A DNA stretch of 54,064 bases. Origin: Verrucomicrobiia bacterium (GTDB taxonomy: Bacteria > Verrucomicrobiota > Verrucomicrobiia > Limisphaerales > JAJOIW01). The notes beneath the pieces are model-generated. The model had not been told where the DNA came from. It saw nothing but the letters and a program-made list of their open reading frames with translations, and searched no databases. The stretch is from contig JAUIAG010000003.1 in assembly GCA_030425355.1 (NCBI GenBank), forward strand, positions 1 to 54,064. The letters run 5' to 3'. Both the position numbers and the translations under genes were made by a program. How positions within the stretch are numbered: position 1 is the first letter of the stretch; each line of letters starts with the position of its first letter. This document shows positions 31,973 through 54,064 of the stretch, piece by piece.

Positions 31973-32059
31973 AAGCTGGATCCGGGCGGCGGGTATTCTT
32001 CAGTGAAGCACGACAGCATCAGCTTCGTGAAAAAAGAAATTTCAAACTGGAGAATTGTT

Positions 32060-32563
32060 ATGAACAGGGCACCACAAAAACTGATTGCATCAATAAGCCG
32101 TCCGATAGTTCTGGTTATTGCCGGGCTGCTTTGGACTGCGACTTTCGGTGCTGCCGGGGAGAGCCCCGACGGTAATGGAACCATGAATGGCTTCGATCGT
32201 TTCAGGCTCCAGTTTTCACCGCAACTCAAGGAAGGCACGGATGGCAAAAGACAGTCCTCGCCTGTCCGTGAAGCACCCATTGTCACCGGCTATGATGAAG
32301 AACGCCAACCGGGCAACACTCCGGTGCGCACAGCCACTCCGGCCCTCAAAGATTCATACGACCAGGCCCGGACCAATTCTCTGGTAACCATAACCATGCA
32401 GGAAGGGAATATTGTTGTCACATGGCCTGAGGGAATGAGTCTTGAATACACCACCGCCATCGGCCAGCCCTGGCAGCCGCTCACCGCCGGAGGCAACCAC
32501 ATCGTTATCAATCCCGAAAATCCTGGACTGTCCCCAACTTCATTCTTCCGTGCTATAAAATAA
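32060..32563 (+). CDS. Small exported protein: linker plus C-terminal W...FFR domain
   Basis: Signal peptide (IVLVIAGLLWTATFGA); C-terminus IVVTWPEGMSLEYTTAIGQPW...SFFRAIK; GGAG RBS before ATG 32060. Confidence 0.6.
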   Translation: MNRAPQKLIASISRPIVLVIAGLLWTATFGAAGESPDGNGTMNGFDRFRLQFSPQLKEGTDGKRQSSPVREAPIVTGYDEERQPGNTPVRTATPALKDSYDQARTNSLVTITMQEGNIVVTWPEGMSLEYTTAIGQPWQPLTAGGNHIVINPENPGLSPTSFFRAIK

Positions 32564-39495: not shown

Positions 39496-41910
<2,415 letters not shown>

Positions 41911-41979
41911 TCAGTCTTCTGTGATCAATGCAATTCTCGAACATCTATTCCAATAATGGAAATTGATTAAAGTTGAAGA

Positions 41980-42002
41980 ATTGATATAATTTTCCAATCA
42001 AT
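41980..42002. promoter_or_regulatory. LysR/OxyR-type dyad in the katG-oxyR divergent region
   Basis: ATTGAT-N11-ATCAAT, plus an extra ATTGAT at 41962, in an AT-rich spacer. Confidence 0.5.
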
Positions 42003-42030
42003 CAGCTTTTGACAGCGATTGGATGAAGTT

Positions 42031-42903
42031 ATGAATTTCCGTGATCTGGAATACCTGGTTGCAGTTGTAAGGCTGACGCACTTCGGAAAGGCGGCCGAGG
42101 AGTGCCATGTCAGTCAGAGTGCGCTGAGTCTTCAGTTGCAGAAACTGGAGCAGGAGATCGGTGTCAAACTGCTGGAACGCACCAGCCGCAGAGTGGTGGT
42201 CACAGAGGCCGGAAAGGAGGCAGCGCGGCGCGCGCAGGAGCTTCTTCAGGGCCGCCGGGACCTTCTTGATGCCGTCAGGCCCTGTAACAGCGGCCTTCCT
42301 ATGACAGTCCGGGCGGGAGCCATCCCCACCGTAGCACCATTTATTTTTGCCCGGTTACAGACACGGTTTCATGAACGGTATCCGGAGACGACGCTGCAAT
42401 TTGACGAGGACGTCACCGAACTTCTGGTTCCAGCGGTAGCCGGCGGCCAAGTGGATGCCGCGATTCTTGCGACAGCGCCGGAGGATTCCCTGATTGAAGA
42501 GCTGGATCTTTTTGACGAACCTTTTCTCCTGGCGACTCCAACAGGGCATCCGCTTGCAGAACAGAGGGCGATCACTCCGGTGGACATCACCCCGTATCGA
42601 CTGCTGCAGCTTAAGCACACCCATTGCCTTCAGGAACAAGTCATCAACTTCTGCTCAAACCATAAGTTATCAACGACCCATCTTCCGACTGCTTCCAGTA
42701 TCGCCACGCTCCTTGTTCTTGTGCAGGCCGGGGTCGGCCTCACCCTGATCCCGCAGATGGCCGTCAGGAGCGCTGAATCACTGCCAGGGATTCGCTGTCT
42801 GCCACTGTCCCCTGCCCCAACCCGAAAGATCCGTGTCATTTACCGGAAGACCTCCACCGTGGGCCGGCGTCTGGCTGAGGCAGTCCGGACATCTCTGGTG
42901 TGA
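42031..42903 (+). CDS. oxyR: Peroxide-sensing LysR regulator OxyR
   Basis: MNFRDLEYLVAV...HFGKAAEECHVSQ, GAIPTVAP and HCLQEQVINFC (C-x8-C redox pair); divergent from katG. Confidence 0.88.
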   Translation: MNFRDLEYLVAVVRLTHFGKAAEECHVSQSALSLQLQKLEQEIGVKLLERTSRRVVVTEAGKEAARRAQELLQGRRDLLDAVRPCNSGLPMTVRAGAIPTVAPFIFARLQTRFHERYPETTLQFDEDVTELLVPAVAGGQVDAAILATAPEDSLIEELDLFDEPFLLATPTGHPLAEQRAITPVDITPYRLLQLKHTHCLQEQVINFCSNHKLSTTHLPTASSIATLLVLVQAGVGLTLIPQMAVRSAESLPGIRCLPLSPAPTRKIRVIYRKTSTVGRRLAEAVRTSLV

Positions 42904-42954
42904 GACGGCATCAATATGGAATCCGCGATAATCCCGGAGCTGATTTTCACTCTC

Positions 42955-43953
42955 TCAGGGATTTTTGCGCAATCTGAAGAACAGGGCATTCATATCCGTT
43001 TCGATGGTGTAGACATAGTTATCGCCGTCCACTGTGTATGGCGGCTGTATGTCTTCCCATGCGGTTGGAGAAACTATGGATTCAGCACTCTGCAAAACCG
43101 GGTCTGCCGTGTTGGAAGCGGCCCATGAGACAAGGACATTTCCATTGTCGCCCGGGGATATATGAAGATCAGGGAGGGGATCACCCCCACCATTATCATC
43201 CACTCCAGCCAGACCAAAGAGCGCGGCTGTGATCCCCATCTCTGGAAAACCGGAATTATCGGCCGCCGGCACAGTGCCGGATCCCATCAGATACACCATC
43301 GCAGTCGCATTCATCGACCGGGCAATCGGGATCAGGACGGAATCCACATAGCTGTCTCCGACTCCTGCATCAAATTCTGCAGCCGGGACAACCCATGCAT
43401 TCCCGGAAATATCAAAGCTGCTGGAATTTGCCTGGCCACTGAGAAGAGTTGCTGAAAAATCCACATTCTGGGTGAAAGCCCCACTGGCCACATCATAGCT
43501 GCCGGAATTGACAGCCGTGATCACGGAACTGAACGGACCATGACCTGGAAATGGCTCGGTGCCTGAGACATCCCATCCGAGAATCAACGGTCCGCCGCCA
43601 CCGGAGGCAACCTCCATGTCGATGGTGACGGTATTTCCGCTCTCGAGGAAGGTGACGGCCTGTCGTTCCGGCGGGAATAGATCCGCATCCGGGATGACAC
43701 CCATACCAAAATCAAAGGCATTGTAGCTGAGGGATCCCGCTGTATTCGCAGCGGACCCGTTACTTTGCGAAGGCTCGGCACTGACGACATCATCTGCAGT
43801 CCCAATCATGCCGTCCACGCCAGGCCAGTGGTTGGACAATTCGTCTGAATGAACGAGCGTGAATGTTTCCTGCGCACCGGATGACCGGGTGAATGACAGG
43901 AGCAATACACCGGTCAGGGTGAAAGCTGCGAGACAGGCTGTAGTGTTTTTCAT
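42955..43953 (-). CDS. Exported acidic beta-rich protein with C-terminal W...FFR domain
   Basis: Signal peptide MKNTTACL...SSGA; GVDGMIGTADD possible Ca-binding loop; C-terminus VLVSW...LQSAESI...W...LFFRLRKNP. Track start 44019. Confidence 0.65.
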   Translation of the reverse strand: MKNTTACLAAFTLTGVLLLSFTRSSGAQETFTLVHSDELSNHWPGVDGMIGTADDVVSAEPSQSNGSAANTAGSLSYNAFDFGMGVIPDADLFPPERQAVTFLESGNTVTIDMEVASGGGGPLILGWDVSGTEPFPGHGPFSSVITAVNSGSYDVASGAFTQNVDFSATLLSGQANSSSFDISGNAWVVPAAEFDAGVGDSYVDSVLIPIARSMNATAMVYLMGSGTVPAADNSGFPEMGITAALFGLAGVDDNGGGDPLPDLHISPGDNGNVLVSWAASNTADPVLQSAESIVSPTAWEDIQPPYTVDGDNYVYTIETDMNALFFRLRKNP

Positions 43954-44188
43954 ATATTTTCTGATCCTATTTATTCCCTGGCTGAGCAAAATAAATTCGG
44001 ACGGCCGATCAGGATTCATCCATCATTCCCTGACCGGGACCACTTTCAGAAAAATATAATACAACCAGGTATTCAAGCATCATATTGAATAAACTGAATT
44101 GATTCTCATTGGCCTCGACATGCATGGAGGCCCCGAAGGAGGGATGACCAGGAGATTCCGGTATCTCATATAGCAGGCGGGATCCGCG

Positions 44189-45328
44189 TCAGATGATGAG
44201 GTCAGGGTTCTCCCAGAAAAGTTCCGCCAGTCCGAATGACAGGGTCATCCCGGCACCGCCGGGAGCCAAAGAAATCCAGCACTGCGGCGCTATCTGGTGA
44301 TGGTGGATGAGTTTATGAGGGTGTTTGACATAAATACCGGACCACCGTTCCGCGATAAGCCAGTGCGGCGGCCTGATGAGGCGCCGAAGTTCGCGAATAA
44401 TGAGGTCGTCAATCACCTGTTTGTCGAAGGGTGAGATGTCCCCGTCATATTCGTGGGAGTCACCGAGAACCAGTCCGCCGCCCGGTCTGCTGATCTGACT
44501 GGCCATGACGTGGATGCCGAACCGGTCCAGCTCCGGAGTTTCGGCGGCTATGCGTTCGGCAAGCTGTTGCAGTGACCCGCAACGGGAAAACGACGGGTAA
44601 TGACGAAGACACAGTCCGGAGGCAATTATCGGCCCCTGATCCAGTCCGGGCATGGGCTGCGTCGCCATCATCTGGAGTTTGCAGCGACGCAATCCAATTT
44701 CCTGGAGGTGTCCGGGAAAGAGTGTCTGGAGATCAGCTCCCGGGCAGACGATAACCCTGTCGCCTCGGAACTGCCCGCCATTGGCACACCGCACCACATT
44801 ATCCTCAACGGAGACAGCCGGGCTCCCCCAGTGAAAACCCACTCCATACTCCCTGGCGAGCCATCCGGGAATTCGTGCGATGGCTTCCCGCGGATTGAGA
44901 TTGCATTCCCGGGGTGAAAAGAGCCCGCCGATGACATGATCCGGGTTGGCGAGTGGAGAGGCATCCAGTGCTTCACGCCCGGAAAGCAGCACGGCCTCGC
45001 TGTCCCTGGACTCGGGGAGAGAAAGGAACTCTTCCATAACTGCCAGCTCGTCATGCCGGGTTGCCAGAAACAGCAATCCACATGGGAAAAACGGGAACCC
45101 GGCGCCGGCAGCTGCCTCCGTCCACCGTTGAGCACTGATGGCAGCTGCCTTTGTCGCCAGACCCTCAGCCATGCCGGTCGGCAGGAAAATTCCGAAGTTC
45201 CGAATGGACGCCCCGCGCGCGACCGGATCGCCCTCGATCACTTCCGCCTTCCACCCTGCACGGGCAGCCGCCAGAGCATGTGCCAGTCCGTGAATACCCG
45301 CACCGATGATGACAACCGTCTGCACCAT
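44189..45328 (-). CDS. TIGR03364-family FAD-dependent oxidoreductase (phosphonate-cluster associated)
   Basis: IIGAGIHG, GASIRNFG, CKLQMM, LGDSHEY, W.G.Y, GGAGMTLSFG. Confidence 0.85.
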   Translation of the reverse strand: MVQTVVIIGAGIHGLAHALAAARAGWKAEVIEGDPVARGASIRNFGIFLPTGMAEGLATKAAAISAQRWTEAAAGAGFPFFPCGLLFLATRHDELAVMEEFLSLPESRDSEAVLLSGREALDASPLANPDHVIGGLFSPRECNLNPREAIARIPGWLAREYGVGFHWGSPAVSVEDNVVRCANGGQFRGDRVIVCPGADLQTLFPGHLQEIGLRRCKLQMMATQPMPGLDQGPIIASGLCLRHYPSFSRCGSLQQLAERIAAETPELDRFGIHVMASQISRPGGGLVLGDSHEYDGDISPFDKQVIDDLIIRELRRLIRPPHWLIAERWSGIYVKHPHKLIHHHQIAPQCWISLAPGGAGMTLSFGLAELFWENPDLII

Positions 45329-45576
45329 GGAAGTTTACGGACTGCCGGGCGGAAGTGGAAGGAGATGTTCAAAGCAGTACAAACTGACTTGCGGGAAAAA
45401 TAAGGATTATGTCGTCCCGATGCATAGGAGTGGCCCCGGAGGTGGACAAAGAAAAGCACTGATCGACTGCCTGAGAGGCATCACGGCGGGATCTGCCCCG
45501 CCTGACGGGAAGGCAATGTCAATCAGGGCAGGTCTCCGACAAAGAGTGGTAACACTGGATGAAAGGTCGAGTTGCA

Positions 45577-46062
45577 TCAATCATTGCCGGGGGAGACGGC
45601 CTGATTGTCCTCTTCTCTGAGCGGGAAGGCGATGGGGAAGATGAGGATCCATGCAGCGGCAAAAAGCGGGAGGTTCTTTATGATGTACTGCCCCTCGAAG
45701 GTAGGGGCGAAAGGGAAGAACTTGAAGCAGAATTCGGGCAGAAGGAAGAGTGGCATGAAGGTGCCGATGATGTGGAAGTTGAGGAGGAAGAATATGAGGC
45801 GCGGAAAGAGGCAGGTCATGAGACCGACGCCGATGGCGCATTCGAGTGTGGCGAGGAGTGTGAGGGCGGTGCGGGTTTCCAGAGCAAATCCACTGAGCTG
45901 ACCGAGGGTGTATTCAGCGATCATTTCAGCCGGACTGAGGTCTGGGAAGAACTTGAGGAGGCCGAACTGGAAATACATGAACCCGACAAGCAGCCGGAAG
46001 ACGTCGCGTGACCAGCGTTCGATACCGGCCCGATCGATGTTGAGAAAAGGCATGCGGGCCAT
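45577..46062 (-). CDS. DoxX-family membrane protein
   Basis: FGLLKFFPDLSPAE, E..IG, PTFEGQYIIKNL; starts 3 nt after the cytochrome c stop (track start 46074). Confidence 0.75.
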   Translation of the reverse strand: MARMPFLNIDRAGIERWSRDVFRLLVGFMYFQFGLLKFFPDLSPAEMIAEYTLGQLSGFALETRTALTLLATLECAIGVGLMTCLFPRLIFFLLNFHIIGTFMPLFLLPEFCFKFFPFAPTFEGQYIIKNLPLFAAAWILIFPIAFPLREEDNQAVSPGND

Positions 46063-46064
46063 CT

Positions 46065-47633
46065 TCAGAGGCACAGGAGAAACGCCACCAGATCGTCCTT
46101 TTCCGAGCGGGAGAGTTGGAGTTCCAGCACCAGGTTGAAGAATTCGACTGCATCGTGGAGGGTCGGGGCACGACCGTCATGCAGATAAGGCGGGCTGTCC
46201 CTGATCCCGCGCAGCGGGAATGTCTTGATCGGCCCCTCGGGGCGTCCGACGTAGAACCGCTCGACTTTCAGGTCGTGCATGTAGTCATCGACGAAGGCCG
46301 GACCGTAGTGGCAGGCGGAACACTGGGCTTTGCCGTGGAACAGTTTTTCCCCCCGCAGCTCCTGCTCTGTTGCCATCGATGGAATAAGCCGCATCATCGG
46401 GCTGAGTTTGGGAGCGGGAGGATAGTCGATGATGGCATTGAAATCCGCCATGCGGTTGGAGACCTCGCGTTTGACGGCTCTCGGGCCGATTGCCTGCTGC
46501 ATCCCCGGATCCCCATCAAAATATTCCTCGATTTCAGCAAAGTGATCGAGACTGCGGATAGACCGCTTGGAGGAAAGCTGCATCAGATTGAAATTTCCGC
46601 GCAGGGTCGGTGTATCCACGCGCAATCGGGCCATGTTCGGCCGCGAATCCGGGCCGAGTTCAATGGCGCCGTTGGTGTGACCATTGACATGACAGTCGAG
46701 GCAGGCGACGCCATCGGAAGGCTGACTGGTCAGCCGGTGCTGCGTCTGATTGAACCACGTGGTGGGTGACGGGCGCAGCAGTTCCTTGAGACCCTCCATC
46801 TGCTCCGGCGTGATCAACCCGTCAAATATTTCGTAGTAATTGTCAAAACTGATTTCCTGTCCGCCTGAAATGTCTCCGAGTTCCTTATGAGTTGTCAGAA
46901 ACAGGGGCGGAGGGAACTCGGGGAGGTAGGCATCGGGAAAATCCATGTCCACATCGATGCGCTTGTGCTCGGGATGCACGGCAGTCCACGAATCCGGAAA
47001 AAGCATGTGGGCCGTCGTCTGGATGGGATGCGCCAGTGGCTTGTAGGGGAAAAGATCGCGACGGCGGATTTCCTCCGCTGTCAGACCGGCAAGTGACTCA
47101 TAGGACTCCACCTCCGCCGGGAGCCTGGCAACCGGCCCGGCCATCACTGCCTTCCGGCCTCCGGACATCATCTGTCCGGGTATCACCGCGCCACTGAAGT
47201 TGAACCGTGAGTTCATGTAGGCCCTCACGTCCTTCATCAGCTCGGGCTTCTGCTTCTGATGAAATTCAATCCACTGATCAAAGCGCATGGGCAGCACAGG
47301 AGTCCCGAATGTCGTCTTGCCCTTGCCGTAGTATCGCCAGAGATCAAAAGGCGTGCGCAGGCCCTTTTCGACAGCCGGATAGAGCCTGAGTTCATCGGTG
47401 GTGCGGTACATCGGCAGATTCTCCCCGGAAACCTGCACAGGCTTGAGGCTTCCGACCGGTGAAGGATTTCCGACAGAGGCATGCGCCGATGAAATAAACC
47501 CGCCGGCACCGTGTCGCGATTCCGGAACCCGGCTCAATCCGGAGCCTTTGTACTGCTGATAGGTCATCCATGTCTGCAGCGCGAAAAGCAGCAGAAATAC
47601 TATGATGGCCGTCTGTTTCCAGGTCTGTTTCAT
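46065..47633 (-). CDS. Exported di-heme cytochrome c (cytochrome c peroxidase/MauG-like superfamily)
   Basis: Two CxxCH motifs (CLDCH, CSACH), DTPTLRG, GEKLF.GKA.C, TFPLRGI..SPPYLHDG. Confidence 0.8.
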   Translation of the reverse strand: MKQTWKQTAIIVFLLLFALQTWMTYQQYKGSGLSRVPESRHGAGGFISSAHASVGNPSPVGSLKPVQVSGENLPMYRTTDELRLYPAVEKGLRTPFDLWRYYGKGKTTFGTPVLPMRFDQWIEFHQKQKPELMKDVRAYMNSRFNFSGAVIPGQMMSGGRKAVMAGPVARLPAEVESYESLAGLTAEEIRRRDLFPYKPLAHPIQTTAHMLFPDSWTAVHPEHKRIDVDMDFPDAYLPEFPPPLFLTTHKELGDISGGQEISFDNYYEIFDGLITPEQMEGLKELLRPSPTTWFNQTQHRLTSQPSDGVACLDCHVNGHTNGAIELGPDSRPNMARLRVDTPTLRGNFNLMQLSSKRSIRSLDHFAEIEEYFDGDPGMQQAIGPRAVKREVSNRMADFNAIIDYPPAPKLSPMMRLIPSMATEQELRGEKLFHGKAQCSACHYGPAFVDDYMHDLKVERFYVGRPEGPIKTFPLRGIRDSPPYLHDGRAPTLHDAVEFFNLVLELQLSRSEKDDLVAFLLCL

Positions 47634-47842
47634 CCTCGGTGATAATCTATGTCGCCAGCCCCGAAGTGCTCCGGGACATGCCGGCTGAGAACGGTGCCGC
47701 CCGGCAGCTGGCGGTGTTACTCGATCAGGAATTTACAAAGAATGACAGGTCCGGCGCCCATGGTCAAGACAGGGCCTCCCGCAACTCCCGCCGGCCCCGG
47801 CCATGAAACAGATCAAATCGCCCCACTCTTCCGGAATCAAAC

Positions 47843-47875
47843 CTGACACAGGAATGTCACACGACTGCAAAAACG
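47843..47875 (+). promoter_or_regulatory. Pho-box-like repeats upstream of the DUF5690 gene
   Basis: CTGACACAGGA-ATGTCACACGA-CTGCAAA, 11-nt period. Confidence 0.5.
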
Positions 47876-47917
47876 GAATCAAATTGAACCGCGAGAATTA
47901 CGGTCAACGCGGCACTT

Positions 47918-49225
47918 ATGGCTTCCGAATCAGAACAGTTTAGAGGATCACCCTTCCCGATTTCCCGCTGGTCACCGCACGGCACGCCCTTCGCGGTGTG
48001 GTGCATGGTGGCGGCCTTCGGCACCTATTTCTGCATGTACGGACTGAGGAAGCCATTCACCGCCACGACCTATGAAGGACTGCAGGCCTTCGGAATGGAC
48101 CTTAAATCTCTGCTGGTGGTGGTGCAGGTCATTGGCTACATGCTGTCAAAGTTCATTGGAATCAGGGTCATTGCCGAGATGGCCCCGGAGCGCAGGGTTC
48201 GGGGGATACTGGTGCTCACCTCGGTGGCATTGGCCTGCCTGCTCGGATTCGGGCTGGTCCCACTGCCATGGTCGGTGGTGTTCCTGTTTGGCAACGGCCT
48301 GATGCTGGGGATGATTTTCGGGCTCGTGCTGGGATTCCTGGAGGGCCGCCGGATGACCGAAGTGCTGGCCGCCGGACTTTGCGCCAGCTTCATTCTGGCG
48401 GATGGCGTGACCAAATCCGTCGGGGCCTGGCTGATTGACCGGGGCATTCCGGAAACGTGGATGCCCTTCGGTGCCGGCATGGTCTTCATGATCCCTCTGC
48501 TTGGCTTCCTCTGGATGCTGGGCCAAATACCGGTGCCGGACCAGCTGGATCAGGAGGAGCGGCAGCAAAGAGTGCGGATGGATGCGGCGGACCGGAGACG
48601 ATATTTTCTGCACTATGCCCCCGGCCTGTCGGCCATTATCGTCGCCTACCTGCTCATCACCCTCATACGGAGCCTCCGCGCCGACTTCGCCCCCGAAATC
48701 TGGAAAAGCCTCGGAGTTGAAACCACTCCCAGGCTTTTCTCACTTTCGGAAACATGGATCGCCCTGGCCATCATGCTCTGCAGCGGACTCTTCTCCCTCT
48801 ACCGCAATAACAGACTGGCACTTTTTCATGCCATCGCCGCTTGCATGCTCGGACTCGCCCTGCTGCCGATTTCCATGGCCGCCATTGACGCAGGATGGAT
48901 CGCGCCTTTCCAGTTCATGGTTCTCGTCGGGCTGGGACTGTACCTGCCATACGTCCTGGTCCACACGACTCTGTTTGAACGCATCATGGCAGTGACCCCG
49001 GATAGAGGAAATATCGGCTATCTCATGTACCTCGCCGATTCCATGGGATACCTCGGTTACGTCATTCTGGTGCTGTTCAGGGACCGGCTCCCCGGACCGG
49101 AAGACCCTCTGCAATTCTTCCGCGCCCTCTGCTGGATTGCCGGCAGTCTCGGATTTATCACTTTCGGTGCAGCCCTCGTCTATTTCCTCTTCCGACTGAG
49201 GACAGTGCCGCCAAACAGGGCGTGA
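47918..49225 (+). CDS. DUF5690-family MFS-like membrane protein (phosphonate-cluster associated)
   Basis: AAFGTYFCMYGLRKPF, GYMLSKFIGI, LEGRRMTE, KSVG, FER, GN.GYLMY.AD..GYLG; about 11-12 TMs. Confidence 0.8.
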   Translation: MASESEQFRGSPFPISRWSPHGTPFAVWCMVAAFGTYFCMYGLRKPFTATTYEGLQAFGMDLKSLLVVVQVIGYMLSKFIGIRVIAEMAPERRVRGILVLTSVALACLLGFGLVPLPWSVVFLFGNGLMLGMIFGLVLGFLEGRRMTEVLAAGLCASFILADGVTKSVGAWLIDRGIPETWMPFGAGMVFMIPLLGFLWMLGQIPVPDQLDQEERQQRVRMDAADRRRYFLHYAPGLSAIIVAYLLITLIRSLRADFAPEIWKSLGVETTPRLFSLSETWIALAIMLCSGLFSLYRNNRLALFHAIAACMLGLALLPISMAAIDAGWIAPFQFMVLVGLGLYLPYVLVHTTLFERIMAVTPDRGNIGYLMYLADSMGYLGYVILVLFRDRLPGPEDPLQFFRALCWIAGSLGFITFGAALVYFLFRLRTVPPNRA

Positions 49226-49551
49226 GGTGAGAATTCCATCCAAAGCGGCTCAAAACGGGTGGAATGAGTGTCGCCTCTCCTCCTCAAAAACCCGGAAAAA
49301 CCGCTGACCAGGCAACGAGAACGGTTTCCAGATTTCTGCCTCTCCCCGGAGTGGGAGACAATCCTGTCCCCCCAAGAACAAAGCTCCGGAACAATGCAGA
49401 CCGGGCACATTTACATTTTTTCGAAAAAAAATGTCTCACCGCGGCCCGGTTTATCGCTTTCGATACGTGAGCGCTGTCCATTGGACAGAATCAAAATGAG
49501 AATGCGGTCTCCGATCAGTTGAAATTGGCGCAGCAGAACCAGAATCAGAAC

Positions 49552-51282
49552 ATGAACCACGATCGTCACAACAGAGGCGCTGCCCTGACGGGTTTGTCAA
49601 AGGGTGGCTGCGTCTCTGTGGCCGCGTTCCTTCTGCTGGTGAATACCCTCACTGGAATCATGGCGGCGACAGTCGACTTTCCGGTGCCCGGGACGCGTGA
49701 GGAATGGATTTGTTCTGCCTCGGCAATCGAGTTGGCAGAACGTATCAGGGATGGCGGGCTGACGAGCGAGGAAGTCGTTTCGCAATTTCTTCGGAGGATA
49801 ACTGTGCTCAATCCTCAGATTGGAGCGGTGGCGTTTCTGAATCCCAAAGCCCTGGATGAGGCCAGGGAAGCCGATCGGCTGCTCTCGGCTTTTCATGCAG
49901 GACAGGGTAGCATTCCGGGCTCCGGGACCTGGTACCCGGGGAGACTGCACGGCGTGCCATTCACCGTTTCCGACCTTTTCGACACCGCCGGGATGCCGTC
50001 CACAGCGGGCACGGAAGGACGACGCGACTACATCCCTGAAAGGGACGCCATCGTGGTCAGCCGGCTGCGTGCGGAAGGAGCGATTCTGCTCGGCAGGACA
50101 GTCTCGTCAGAACTCGGCCTTGGATGGAATTCCGGCAACCGCATCCACGGTTCACCGGCAAATCCCTATGACAAAGACCGCCGGGCAGGAGGATCAAACT
50201 GCGGCGGGGCGGCCCTGGTTGCGGCTTGCGGAACCCCTTTTGATATCGGGATCGATCTGGGTGGCGGCATCCTCCTGTCAGCACACTTCAATGGAATCTT
50301 TGGCCTGAAAGCAACATGGGGTCGGATTCCTCTCACTGGATCGATTCTCTCGGCTGTCCCGAAACTCACCGCACCCGGCATTCTCGCCCGCTCAGTGGAA
50401 GACATTCAATTGGTGCTCGGGATTCTGTCGGGAAGTGATTCCTCGGACCCCTTCAGCTCGGACCAGCCACTGGCCGACTTCAGGGAGGTGAATACCCGAC
50501 AGTTGAGACTGCTTGTTCGTTTTGAAAATTCCAGTCAGCAGCTCACCTCTTTACGGATGTCACGCCTCCTGAACAGAACAAGGGATCATTTCGTTTCCCG
50601 GGGTGTTCCAGTCATCAACAGAGAAATGGGATCGAGGCGGGACCATACCGGCTATGACCAGTTCAACAAACTGTTCTTCCTTAATTCCAACGGGTTCAGA
50701 ATCAATAAGTTACTCAACGAGTCGAAAACAGAAACAACACGGCTCTCGAATGAGCTGCACACCTATGTGCAGCACTGGAAAGAGTACCTGGCGAACAGGA
50801 AACAGGGACACTATTTTGAATTCAACGCGATGTGGTATCCCTATTGGTTTCCAGCGTATCTCAGCGGGGATCTGGCTGATGCTGTCATCGGACCGGTTTA
50901 TTCCTCCGGATCCCCGACGGATCACGAAGTTATAGATCCGGCCCGCATAGGAGTGATTGAATGCACCATATCCGGGTGTCCGGCAATCAGTATCCCCGCG
51001 GGCACGGATGAGTTTGGCATGCCGCTCGGCATAGCGATGGCAACCTACTCATGGAAGGAGGCCATGCTGCTGGCACTGGCACAATCGGTTCAGGAGTCAG
51101 GCGGTGGATGGAGTGCTCCCGGAGTGAAAATCAGAGTATCCGGGACGGGGCAGGAGCTCAGCATCCTCGGGACCGGAAAACTGCTCAGGGCTGAAGACCC
51201 GGGCGGTCCGTGGCAGCCGGCTTCACTCTCCGATGCCATTAATCAGTCTCCCCGTCAGTTTTTTAAATTGAAAAATTTATGA
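49552..51282 (+). CDS. Exported amidase-signature-fold protein with degenerate catalytic triad and C-terminal W...FFK domain
   Basis: LHGVPFTVSD, NPYD...AGGSN, DLGGGI, GIFGLK.T.GR, G.PLG. Track start TTG 49519. Confidence 0.8.
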   Translation: MNHDRHNRGAALTGLSKGGCVSVAAFLLLVNTLTGIMAATVDFPVPGTREEWICSASAIELAERIRDGGLTSEEVVSQFLRRITVLNPQIGAVAFLNPKALDEAREADRLLSAFHAGQGSIPGSGTWYPGRLHGVPFTVSDLFDTAGMPSTAGTEGRRDYIPERDAIVVSRLRAEGAILLGRTVSSELGLGWNSGNRIHGSPANPYDKDRRAGGSNCGGAALVAACGTPFDIGIDLGGGILLSAHFNGIFGLKATWGRIPLTGSILSAVPKLTAPGILARSVEDIQLVLGILSGSDSSDPFSSDQPLADFREVNTRQLRLLVRFENSSQQLTSLRMSRLLNRTRDHFVSRGVPVINREMGSRRDHTGYDQFNKLFFLNSNGFRINKLLNESKTETTRLSNELHTYVQHWKEYLANRKQGHYFEFNAMWYPYWFPAYLSGDLADAVIGPVYSSGSPTDHEVIDPARIGVIECTISGCPAISIPAGTDEFGMPLGIAMATYSWKEAMLLALAQSVQESGGGWSAPGVKIRVSGTGQELSILGTGKLLRAEDPGGPWQPASLSDAINQSPRQFFKLKNL

Positions 51283-52559
51283 ACCACAGGGAACACCACA
51301 CTCTCAGATTTGGCGGATGCGTCATCCCTGTCCCGGTCAGCCGGAACAGGATTTTAGTCCTGAGCTTCATTGTGAATTTCCTGTGGGCTCCGGTGAATCT
51401 TGTGTCCTATGAATCGTTCATCACGGTGGATGATCCAAGTGGGCCAAACAGCACTTTATTCAGCAAATACACGCTGAACGACAATAACACTCTCACGCTT
51501 GAATGGAATGGAAATCCATCTTTTGTCAGACTGGAGTACACAGGAAGACTCTCAGACCAGTGGTATAAGGCGCACTTTCCCGAATACATTACCTGGGTGG
51601 ACCGGGAACAGACTATTGTGCCATTGAGTGACTCACAGGCTTTTTACCGTCTGGCTGTTTATGACGAGGCTGTGAAAAGGCTCCCGGTGAAACTTCTCGT
51701 CCCGGATCACCTCCGCGAAACGACAAAAGTCCCCCTGATTATAGCGCTGCACCCGTGGTTCACATCGGCGGCTTACCTGGATCAGAGCCAACTCCCGCTG
51801 AGCAGCTATTATAATGACTTCAATGGGGACGGATATATCTTGGCTCTGCCCGACGGGTTGCGGGATAGGGGCACTGCGCGCTACTTCTCCCCGGAGACCT
51901 CTGAATACGGTGAATTTCACCGTGACGGAGCCAGAGGCTGGAACGCACACCCTGGATGTTGCAAGGATGAAGGAGACCAGTGGGTGGATGACATCCACTA
52001 CATGCAGCTTTTAGTGAACCGGATTGTTTCTGAATATCCTGTCGACAGAAGAAGAATTTACATCGTCGGGATAGAAAACGGTGCGCACATGGTCCATTCC
52101 TGCCTGAAACGGTTCAATTACATCTTCGCTGCCGGTGTGGCCATCAACGGAACAACCAGTTCATGGCTTGATGATTTTGGCGCTACTGCGACAAACACCG
52201 CCATTCTGCAGATTCACAGTCGATATGACCCGCGTGCGCTTTACAACGGTGGTGGGTATGGAGTTTTCCCGGGAAGTTTCGCTGGAGTGGAGGACACGTT
52301 GAATGCCTGGGCTGAATCCATGGAAATTGAAGGCAACCTGATTCCCACCGGTGAAACCCTCGACCTGGATCTCGATAACCCGGGAATTGATACGGATACT
52401 TTCCGATTTCCGGACTCGGATAGAATTGAACTCTGGGCATTACGGAGTGGCAGTTCACATCGTCCCGCGTTTGTAAAAAAGGAAACCGGCGACCAGATCA
52501 CTGTCGGTGATGCACCCCGCCTCATTCTTGAATGGCTGTTCCGGTTTCAACTGGAATAA
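51279..52559 (+). CDS. Exported alpha/beta-hydrolase-fold protein (PHB depolymerase/LpqC-like) with Ser-to-Glu nucleophile and N-terminal W...FYR domain
   Basis: PLIIALH, PDG, WNA..GCC, DDIHYM...VD..RIY..GIENG..M, LQIH...D, GSSH; ATGA overlap with the upstream gene. Confidence 0.75.
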   Translation: MNHREHHTLRFGGCVIPVPVSRNRILVLSFIVNFLWAPVNLVSYESFITVDDPSGPNSTLFSKYTLNDNNTLTLEWNGNPSFVRLEYTGRLSDQWYKAHFPEYITWVDREQTIVPLSDSQAFYRLAVYDEAVKRLPVKLLVPDHLRETTKVPLIIALHPWFTSAAYLDQSQLPLSSYYNDFNGDGYILALPDGLRDRGTARYFSPETSEYGEFHRDGARGWNAHPGCCKDEGDQWVDDIHYMQLLVNRIVSEYPVDRRRIYIVGIENGAHMVHSCLKRFNYIFAAGVAINGTTSSWLDDFGATATNTAILQIHSRYDPRALYNGGGYGVFPGSFAGVEDTLNAWAESMEIEGNLIPTGETLDLDLDNPGIDTDTFRFPDSDRIELWALRSGSSHRPAFVKKETGDQITVGDAPRLILEWLFRFQLE

Positions 52560-52619
52560 CCATTATAGAGGACTTGAATCCGCGTTGCCCGGTGTTGTGC
52601 GCCCCAACTCAGAATTGGC

Positions 52620-53819
52620 TCACGCGAAATCCAGTCCAAATGAGACCCTGCCGGCCAGTTCACGCGCCTGAGATAGCAGCTCCAGCTGCTCTCTTTCGTG
52701 CTTTTTTCCCATTTTCCCCAGAATCCGGGCCTTTGTCCCAAGTATCCTTGGAAGCCAGACCGTTTCACCTATCCTGTTTCCAAATGCGATGGCCTCATCA
52801 ACTGTGGCAAGAGCCTCATCGAATTTATTAAGCTGGAAATAAGCCGAGGCCATTATTTCGAGCCAGAAAGACCATGCAAAGTTGAAATTCAACTTTTCCA
52901 GAAGGGAAAGTCCCTCCTTGATCCTGTCTATGGAGTGCATGTCCTTGTGAACTGCGGCCCTGCAATTTCCAATGTGGATGTTTGCGATAGCGGTGACCAA
53001 TGGAAGGTTATCTTGTGACAGTTCGAGACCTTTCTCGGCCGCTTTCAGTGCTTCCTTCCAATACCCGTTGGCATAATAAATATCCGCTTCCCAGGACAGG
53101 GCCACAGCCCTGAAGGAATCACCATGATTTGAGGCGAATCTGTGACATCGGTCAATAACTCGAAGTGCCTGTTGCAGATCACCAAGCAGACAGTAACAGA
53201 AGGCCAGAACGCACAGACGCATGACTTCACTGTGAACACCGAGCAGACCGTATTCAGCATCAGCGAGTGGGGTATGCCCGGAGGATCCCTCATGTGCCTC
53301 CAGTTTATTTTTTACTTTTCGGAGGTTCTTGCCCTGAAATAAATCAATCTGTGCCACAGCATAGGAACACGCGATAGCCATGATGTTAGGCTCCAGCTCA
53401 AAACAATCGGCAAAATGCGTGAGATTCCGATTTTTCCGAAGGCTTGACTGGTATTTACCCTGCAGAAACTCGATCTGAGCCGCATACCAGTGACCATAAA
53501 AGATGTCGAGAAGAGGAGCGCTGAGGTCGAATGCAATCTCCCTGTATGTCTGCATGGCCTGAGTGGTCGACATTCTGGATGTCATGGTTAAGATTTCCTG
53601 GTAACCCAGGACGTGCTTTTTATCGGAATGCGCTTTCCGGACTTCCTCATACCATGATTTGAGAATTTTTCGTTTGTCCGGTCGCGGCGTGGTCGTGCCC
53701 GATGTCCAGTCGGAAACAGTGGACTGGCTGACGCCCATCCTGCGGGCCACTTTCGACTGCGTATAGCCTGTAACCTGCTGAATGAACTCAATCATTTCAC
53801 TGAACTCCGATCGGGCCAT
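52620..53819 (-). CDS. XRE-family HTH plus TPR-like helical repeat protein
   Basis: GYTQSKVARRMGVSQSTVSDWTSG...P HTH followed by A/G/L-patterned helical repeats; GGAGGAG RBS favours ATG 53819 over TTG 53828. Confidence 0.78.
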   Translation of the reverse strand: MARSEFSEMIEFIQQVTGYTQSKVARRMGVSQSTVSDWTSGTTTPRPDKRKILKSWYEEVRKAHSDKKHVLGYQEILTMTSRMSTTQAMQTYREIAFDLSAPLLDIFYGHWYAAQIEFLQGKYQSSLRKNRNLTHFADCFELEPNIMAIACSYAVAQIDLFQGKNLRKVKNKLEAHEGSSGHTPLADAEYGLLGVHSEVMRLCVLAFCYCLLGDLQQALRVIDRCHRFASNHGDSFRAVALSWEADIYYANGYWKEALKAAEKGLELSQDNLPLVTAIANIHIGNCRAAVHKDMHSIDRIKEGLSLLEKLNFNFAWSFWLEIMASAYFQLNKFDEALATVDEAIAFGNRIGETVWLPRILGTKARILGKMGKKHEREQLELLSQARELAGRVSFGLDFA

Positions 53820-53917
53820 AGTCGTCAAACTCCTCCGTAACTGAAAATATCCGCGCCTGAGAACGCCGCAGCAGCCACTCCGGGCTTCAGCGCACTGACA
53901 GAAAGAAGGTTTCAGCT

Positions 53918-53957
53918 ATGGGTTGTGATTCTACCCATTTATCCCACACAGTTTCAA
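53918..53957 (-). promoter_or_regulatory. Sigma70-like promoter with overlapping dyad
   Basis: Minus strand TTGAAA-N18-TAGAAT (53957-53928); ATGGGT-N9-ACCCAT dyad (53918-53938) covers the -10 element. Confidence 0.5.
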
Positions 53958-54064
53958 GTCCCCGCCAGAGTCCGGTGCATTATGCTCCTGAGATTGATGG
54001 CTTCCACTGACCTATTCTTTGAACCTGTTCCATTATCCCAATCCATCCGTGAATCTCGATTCAT

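Follow-up and report, generated by a model that had tools for sequence, protein, structure and literature searches.

Amidase-signature enzymes share an established Ser-cisSer-Lys catalytic mechanism, and the active members compared below keep the Lys, the Ser-Ser pair and the nucleophile Ser. Toc64, a protein of the chloroplast outer envelope, has kept the fold and not the chemistry: according to its description (Sohrt and Soll 2000; PMC2174300), its active-site Ser is replaced by Gly, it shows no measurable amidase activity, and a hydrophobic N-terminus has been added to an otherwise soluble fold that now serves as a binding or receptor component. A literature search for bacterial amidase-signature pseudoenzymes gave no match, and the available portion of a pseudoenzyme review (PMC10211241) contains nothing on the amidase-signature family or on the esterase family considered below. 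Here we analyse a 54,064-nucleotide stretch of DNA from a Verrucomicrobiia bacterium (JAUIAG010000003.1; called the window throughout), which is one entire contig (C407) of a 488-contig, 5.4-Mb assembly (G000) that is 95% complete. Three genes stand at its right end: an amidase-like gene and an esterase-like gene on the plus strand and, convergent with them on the minus strand, a gene for an XRE-type helix-turn-helix (HTH) protein with tetratricopeptide repeats (TPR), referred to below as the regulator.

An earlier note on this DNA had described the two plus-strand genes as joined by an ATGA overlap, derived from unrelated hydrolase folds and each deprived of its nucleophile, and all of these points were borne out. 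Individually, amidase-signature and alpha/beta-hydrolase pseudoenzymes are of a known kind; what is unusual is the presence of two dead hydrolases side by side. The view that we favour, with reservations, is that the genes encode a lineage-specific, coupled pair of folded and probably non-catalytic binding proteins of the cell envelope.

Catalytic residues and folds of the two proteins

The amidase-like protein was matched by the Pfam Amidase family (PF01425) over residues 85-518 with an E-value of 2.9e-62, scoring 211.6 bits against a cutoff of 27 and covering model positions 1-445. Residues are numbered from the ATG at 49552, and the public gene call is identical to this frame; an in-frame TTG at 49519 would give an alternative protein of 587 amino acids (aa; open reading frame (ORF) 49519-51282). 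The AlphaFold2 (AF2) model has a mean predicted local distance difference test (pLDDT) score of 82.2, with most of residues 50-520 above 90, and Foldseek aligned it to GatA (3kfu) with a template modelling (TM) score of 0.84, and GatA and biuret hydrolase together gave scores of 0.82-0.87 (all normalised to the target). Sequence alignments were obtained with urethanases, GatA and FAAH of known structure, phmmer giving E 3.1e-36 for 9fvf, and the protein shares both the fold and the Gly/Ser-rich signature region with the urethanases UMG-SP3/UMG-SP2 (9fvf, 9fzw), with GatA (3kfu, 4wj3) and with 14 paralogs in its own genome.

Within this well-supported fold the catalytic motifs have been rewritten. 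Alignment with urethanase 9fvf pairs 'tvsdl' with 'tikes', 'ggsncgg' with 'ggssgg' and 'dlgggill' with 'diggsirv', and comparison with 119 relatives identified five replacements: K140S, S216N, S239G at the nucleophile, R241L and P243S. The family residue was found in 119/119 relatives at the Lys, both Ser and the Pro positions, and in 109/119 at the Arg position. The catalytic residues were likewise intact in all 63 sequences of an amidase alignment (A2) and in every one of the 14 further ORFs with an amidase signature that this genome contains. Of the Ser-cisSer-Lys triad only cis-Ser215 is present in the amidase-like protein, together with the Gly-rich loop. Because the family mechanism needs the residues that have been lost, the protein, to judge from its sequence, cannot act as an amidase.

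By analogy, Toc64 appears to be the closest precedent for this protein. Toc64 carries the same Ser-to-Gly change and the same addition of a hydrophobic N-terminus, but it is eukaryotic, has a fused TPR module and has only one catalytic residue changed; the amidase-like protein comes from a bacterium, lacks a TPR fusion, and has had its Lys and second Ser replaced as well. Set beside the active enzymes, the amidase-like protein also has a terminal branch roughly threefold longer than the median and an extra C-terminal tail of 50 residues.

A word-based search with the esterase-like protein returned no relative, and an exhaustive HMMER search detected 2945 at E<=0.001, 385 at E<=1e-10 and a single one below 1e-30. 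This last sequence (P0122, 38% identity) is named polyhydroxybutyrate (PHB) depolymerase in its source, and the nearest Atlas clusters of the query are mostly from Verrucomicrobiota. Family models gave scores below their cutoffs: 48 bits (E 1.1e-12) against a cutoff of 150 for NCBIfam NF050058 (extracellular dPHAscl type 1), and 27.3 bits (E 2.2e-6) against 107.85 for TIGR01840. Pfam Esterase_PHB did not match at E<=0.01, and the only Pfam match, Peptidase_S9 at 17 bits, was also under its cutoff. The AF2 model of the core (residues 130-426) has high pLDDT, mostly above 90, and Foldseek related it with probability 1.00 to 9byu (E 7.1e-14), 9j07 (E 8.0e-14) and 8daj (E 1.0e-12). The fold is thus of the alpha/beta-hydrolase type, with its closest structural neighbours among PHB depolymerases (9byu and 8daj, Lihuaxuella), acetyl xylan esterase B (9j07) and feruloyl esterases, and the protein shares with these PHB-depolymerase/CE1 esterases the alpha/beta core, a conserved CC pair, the catalytic Asp and His, and the elbow glycines. 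It differs from them in its nucleophile elbow, in its oxyanion region and in its NCBIfam scores, which lie far under the cutoffs.

At the elbow the family sequence GHSNG reads GIENG, placing Glu at residue 266, where the 149 relatives compared have Ser (146), Gly (2) or Phe (1) and in no case Glu; solved homologues read GISAG (3wla) and GLSMG (3doh) at the same place. In the oxyanion region HG has become HP at position 159 (Gly in 132/149 relatives), and Phe270 has become His. The remainder of the GxSxG-Asp-His triad is present, as Asp317 (149/149 relatives) and His394 (144/149), and so are the elbow glycines 264 and 268. DPP6, in which the nucleophile Ser is replaced and which serves as a non-catalytic channel subunit, offers a partial parallel: it too combines a retained hydrolase fold and an acidic residue in place of the nucleophile Ser with a role in binding, although the subfamily is an unrelated animal one. 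A DPP6 structure (7e8h) appeared at Foldseek rank 44 for the esterase-like model.

Both proteins show the sequence marks of a pseudoenzyme, a kept fold and a lost catalytic motif, and are putative pseudoenzymes. Among the 149 esterase relatives, three further sequences are without the nucleophile Ser: in P0162 and P0235 the elbow is G[LI]GNGAML, with Gly at the position and with Asp and His kept in the alignment, and P0239 has Phe. Loss of the nucleophile therefore recurs in the esterase family. A second esterase-like paralog of 392 aa in the same genome (contig C371, 5417-6595, minus strand) has a leader, a W...FFRV segment and an esterase domain, and its elbow reads GTGSGG, with Gly in the nucleophile column and Ser one position later. 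In the relatives' genomes, the seven esterase matches that were examined all keep the Ser.

Evidence for a retained role and for decay

The distribution of substitutions bears directly on whether these genes are being kept or lost. Of the 31 columns that are at least 90% conserved in its relatives, the amidase-like protein retains 26, and the five that it has lost all belong to the K, GSS and GGS.R.P motifs; the esterase-like protein keeps 27 of 29 such columns. The replacements took several steps. Ser140 (TCC) is at least three base changes away from either Lys codon (AAA/AAG), and Glu266 (GAA) at least two from any Ser codon; altogether the catalytic replacements amount to at least seven base changes over five amidase codons and two in one esterase codon. 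For neutrally drifting frames at 5% divergence, the probability of meeting no stop would be 0.047 and 0.078 for the two genes, so a stop would probably have appeared by then; the losses are old by comparison with any neutral phase.

Strain data came from contigs of three public runs (X1, X2 and X3) belonging to two studies, with more than 99% identity over the genes; X1 and X2 give near-identical figures and may be one data set, and one of the runs may be the source of the window itself. No stop or insertion/deletion (indel) was present within either gene in any of these contigs. Because the losses are targeted, the replacements multi-step and the frames still open, simple decay is a poor description of the pair. 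The clustering of losses at the catalytic centres, with fold-defining positions kept, points to a retained non-catalytic role, and it seems reasonable to regard the two genes as something other than decay debris. The suggestion in the earlier note that parallel loss of catalysis with intact frames reflects selection for such a role is thus supported. The main present value of the locus is as a clean sequence example of targeted catalytic loss as opposed to decay.

We envisage the pair working as follows. The amidase-like protein would have descended from the expanded amidase-signature paralogs of this bacterial group, and the esterase-like protein from a family with the arrangement leader, small beta module and PHB-depolymerase-type esterase. 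The ATGA overlap makes co-expression plausible: the genes would be co-transcribed and probably translationally coupled. Each protein would have kept its fold and much of its pocket (cis-Ser and the Gly-rich loop in one; Asp, His and the elbow glycines in the other) while losing the residue that attacks the substrate, which would make the hydrolysis typical of its family impossible. N-terminal hydrophobic leaders would most likely deliver both proteins to the cell envelope, and there they would bind, rather than cleave, an amide- or ester-bearing ligand or a protein partner; this binding, and any cooperation between the two, we infer.

Export of both proteins is suggested by the single N-terminal hydrophobic segment that each contains. 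In the amidase-like protein this segment, the sole one, reaches a Kyte-Doolittle maximum of 2.09 at GCVSVAAFLLLVNTL and corresponds to helix 20-36 of the model; that of the esterase-like protein is again the only one and corresponds to helix 22-40. These segments, together with a module in the esterase-like protein that recurs in 93 ORFs of the genome (see below), make an envelope location plausible. The two proteins also begin alike, with MNH(D/R)(R/E)H and a GGC just ahead of the hydrophobic segment (49552-49620 and 51279-51330). This MNH.R.H...GGC likeness was set aside as a link between them and is treated as chance, because 11 ORFs of the genome begin MNH[DREKH].

Several results weigh against a retained function. 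In none of 40 related genomes searched (2 of the same genus and 38 of the same order) did a single contig carry matches to both proteins, and the nearest relatives of the two proteins are remote, at 32-45% identity for the amidase-like and 38% for the esterase-like protein. The esterase-like gene falls in the lowest 4-6% of the genome for guanine-plus-cytosine content (GC), third-position GC (GC3) and codon fit, values that fit weak expression or a foreign origin. The amidase-like protein has a terminal branch of 1.5, about three times the median of 0.47. No RNA data were listed among the public runs matching the locus. Between the window and the X3 contig, 21 of 26 differences over 12.8 kb lie in the last 4.5 kb, which holds the three genes (P 3e-6). 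Counts of nonsynonymous and synonymous differences between the window and the strains are 2:3 for the amidase-like gene, 2:2 for the esterase-like gene and 5:4 for the regulator; pooled over the pair (4:5), the ratio of nonsynonymous to synonymous polymorphism (pN/pS) is about 0.25-0.35 with P 0.04-0.11 against neutrality, which is not clearly below the neutral value.

Nor can conservation vouch for function, since the pair is absent from relatives and its homologues are distant. At E<=1e-12 there were no esterase-like matches in 400 other genomes sampled across the phylum, and large collections comprising billions of proteins held no homologue of either gene above about 45% identity. The pair recurs only in the near-identical strains of the three runs. 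It appears confined, as far as the data go, to one species-level lineage and is not a conserved system, so that the word 'system' in the earlier note is not upheld; for the present the two genes are a peculiarity of a single lineage. The neighbouring genes, for a DUF5690 protein and a MauG-like di-haem protein, have orthologues in the same-genus genomes G001 and G002, in other surroundings and without the pair. The amidase-like gene itself groups, with 98% support in the Shimodaira-Hasegawa-like approximate likelihood ratio test (SH-aLRT), with tandem-array amidases of contig C389 of its own genome, of another relative (G022) and of G001, and seems to have diverged from an amidase family that is native to the group and has expanded there.

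These results bring forward the possibility that the genes are on their way out: a recently acquired or redundant accessory block, including the regulator, would be under relaxed selection, its proteins without function and its frames open simply for lack of time. We regard this as unlikely. It would account for the absence of orthologues in G001, G002 and the other relatives, for the low GC, GC3 and codon fit of the esterase-like and regulator genes and for the long amidase branch. It would likewise suit the density of strain differences, which is 7.7-fold higher in 49552-54064 than in the 8.3 kb upstream (41293-49551), and a pN/pS of 0.25-0.44, whose shortfall from 1 loses significance when transition bias is taken into account. 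Decay does not, however, readily explain why at least seven plus two base changes struck the catalytic codons when the other conserved columns were kept (26/26 and 27/28), a pattern unlike random loss, nor why neither gene has a stop or indel in any assembly. Both cores are, moreover, predicted to fold with confidence. Synonymous differences are enriched in the three-gene block too (9/12, P 0.013), and the extra divergence therefore does not come from relaxed constraint alone.

Two other readings were weighed. The esterase-like protein might perform changed chemistry through a Glu266-His394-Asp317 triad, with the amidase-like protein as an accessory. Within this superfold, an Asp acts as the nucleophile in such a triad in haloalkane dehalogenases and epoxide hydrolases, and it suits this idea that Asp317, His394 and glycines 264 and 268 are all kept, and that the replacement is a carboxylate reached through at least two base changes, in a family whose three other nucleophile-less members have Gly or Phe. 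Yet we know of no alpha/beta hydrolase with a Glu nucleophile (no search aimed at this was made), the HG of the oxyanion hole has become HP, and Glu is without parallel at the nucleophile position among the relatives; we consider such chemistry very unlikely. We give equally little credence to a three-gene sensing module, with the HTH-TPR protein either controlling the two genes or reacting to some ligand caught by their products. The three genes do lie together at one contig end, the last two are unusually low in GC, all three are without orthologues in relatives, and raised strain divergence is common to them. The shared position, low GC, absence of orthologues and raised divergence suggest a joint arrival, at least for the esterase-like and regulator genes. 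Against a sensing role, the genes are convergent, so that the regulator and the pair share no promoter region; a palindrome upstream of the pair (49413-49434) is not repeated in the vicinity of the regulator gene; and the amidase-like gene differs in composition. The earlier note had itself called the link to the regulator speculative, and it comes down to convergent adjacency.

Returning to the favoured pair of non-catalytic binding proteins, two consequences would follow if both are made and do bind. The locus would add a bacterial, envelope-located case to the few pseudoenzymes of amidase and esterase fold, and it would be a rare instance of two unrelated dead hydrolases forming one translational unit. 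Going further, the two might be made in fixed proportion and assemble into a heteromeric envelope trap for an amide- or ester-bearing molecule, such as a decoy that may absorb inhibitors of the 14 active amidase paralogs that the organism has, or else Glu266-His-Asp might support a new chemistry. This wider proposal, trap or chemistry, is a doubtful one; were it true, two unrelated hydrolase folds would have been disarmed and recruited together, which would be unusual.

The W...F[FY]R module, the regulator gene and the surrounding DNA

The earlier note had also assigned a shared W...F[FY][RK] domain to both proteins, and this held for the esterase-like protein and not for the amidase-like one. 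A profile of the module built from C-terminal tails of this genome found 105 copies in 93 ORFs, mostly large, with 80 of the copies C-terminal. The copy in the esterase-like protein lies N-terminal to the catalytic-fold domain. P0122, P0127 and P0128, the active proteins closest to the esterase-like one, are likewise built of leader, small module and esterase. The amidase-like protein gave no profile match even at E<=100 with filters off; hhalign compared its tail with the module at a probability of 1.1-3.1%, aligning only the last nine residues. The tail (residues 526-576) has pLDDT below 50, the input alignment for AF2 contained no relatives over it, and none of the 14 amidase paralogs of the genome has the module. 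The tag does not link the two genes, because it occurs only in the esterase-like protein of the pair and is spread over 93 ORFs; it is too widespread in Verrucomicrobia proteins to connect neighbouring genes. One ORF on contig C56 has six internal tandem copies, and two further genes of the window carry the module (42955-44019, minus strand, and 32003-32563, plus strand), in neither of which Pfam finds anything.

The positions of the features discussed are collected in Table 1. As the earlier note had stated, 60 bp separate the esterase-like stop from the 3' end of the regulator gene.

Table 1. Features at the right end of the window, with coordinates counted from its first nucleotide
Feature	Position	Strand	Basis or remark
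Amidase-signature gene (putative pseudo-amidase)	49552..51282	+	ORF, 576 aa from ATG 49552; Pfam PF01425
N-terminal hydrophobic segment, amidase-like protein	49606..49665	+	Putative signal peptide or signal anchor
Codon TCC (Ser140) at catalytic Lys position	49969..49971	+	Lys in 119/119 relatives and 14/14 paralogs
GSS motif: cis-Ser215 kept (TCA), second Ser replaced by Asn216 (AAC)	50194..50199	+	Alignments, codons
Nucleophile motif GGS-I-R-x-P changed to GGG-I-L-L-S (Gly239, Leu241, Ser243)	50266..50280	+	Alignments, codons
C-terminal tail of amidase-like protein, ending ...W...FFKLKNL	51127..51279	+	Tag look-alike, not a supported copy
ATGA start/stop overlap of the two genes	51279..51282	+	Direct sequence reading; amidase-like frame ends ...AAT TTA TGA, esterase-like ATG at 51279
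PHB-depolymerase/CE1-type gene (putative pseudo-esterase)	51279..52559	+	ORF, 426 aa
N-terminal hydrophobic segment, esterase-like protein	51351..51404	+	Kyte-Doolittle maximum 2.24 at ILVLSFIVNFLWAPV
Module copy in esterase-like protein	51483..51662	+	Residues 69-128, E 6.2e-8 against genome profile
Codon GAA (Glu266) at GxSxG nucleophile position	52074..52076	+	Ser in 146/149 relatives
XRE-type HTH and TPR regulator gene	52620..53819	-	Pfam HTH_3, TPR_2, TPR_12; 399 aa, ATG 53819
Promoter-like site TTGAAA-18-TAGAAT upstream of regulator gene	53928..53957	-	10/12 consensus matches; weak

The regulator scored above the Pfam cutoffs for HTH_3 (31.9 bits; cutoff 23), TPR_2 (44.9; 27) and TPR_12 (39.4; 30.1). 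Tested as a peptide sensor of the RRNPP type, it reached 17.8 bits with the AimR model NF038310, against a cutoff of 70. A search of 5.8 billion proteins returned a single relative, P0274 (54% identity), which is encoded on a 109-kb contig, and there was no match in the 40 relatives (E<=0.001) or in the 400 other genomes sampled from the phylum (E<=1e-10). The regulator alignment found no match in genome or metagenome contigs, nor did the esterase-like query in metagenome contigs. With the PADLOC defence models the pair had no match, and those of the regulator were weak and to HTH models.

The AT-rich character that the earlier note ascribed to the whole region holds for two of the three genes. 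With GC of 0.513 and 0.498, the esterase-like and regulator genes stand at the 3.7th and 2.1st percentiles of 2661 long ORFs; GC, GC3 and codon fit each place both genes within the bottom 2-6% of the genome, and they look compositionally foreign. The amidase-like gene as a whole (0.561, 34th percentile) is near the genome mean, and only 50400-51000 falls to 0.50. Within the TPR region of the regulator gene, four strain differences occur within 17 bp (53094-53110), a cluster that may be a recombination tract.

Signals of transcriptional organisation were sparse. The 60-bp gap between the esterase-like and regulator genes showed no structure or terminator signal (z-score -0.32), and promoter and terminator counts in the region were not above those of shuffled sequence. 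The promoter-like site upstream of the regulator gene is rated weak because such sites number four in the region against a shuffle mean of 3.0. The regulator gene has a TTG at 53828 as an alternative start, and the contig ends 236 bp past its start codon. No convincing repeats join the promoter regions, and the window contains no tRNA genes that might mark an island. A 17,363-base X3 contig runs 4,590 bases past the window end at 54064, so the rest of the low-GC block exists in public data.

About 120 bp upstream of the amidase-like ATG lies a perfect 22-bp A/T palindrome (ACATTTTTT-CG-AAAAAAAATGT, 49413-49434), the sole copy in the window, with none expected by chance. The palindrome may serve as an operator, or as a weak terminator for the DUF5690 gene, and in minor X1/X2 contigs its A run is shorter by one base.

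The amidase-signature family is expanded in tandem arrays in this group. The assembly has 15 such ORFs in all (contigs C389, C332, C462 and C334), among them four consecutive genes on C389 and, on C462, an ORF of 1040 aa that contains two amidase domains; the paralogs examined all keep their catalytic residues. G022 has eight amidase genes in a row (L026; G022:C9:22000-41000) and G001 has five (L027; G001:C226).

Elsewhere in the window, a catalase-peroxidase-type gene occupies 39499-41844 on the minus strand (Pfam peroxidase, E 1.7e-72). In the metagenome runs contigs of many other organisms stack on this gene, which accounts for depth peaks and joints at 39.6-41.5 kb.

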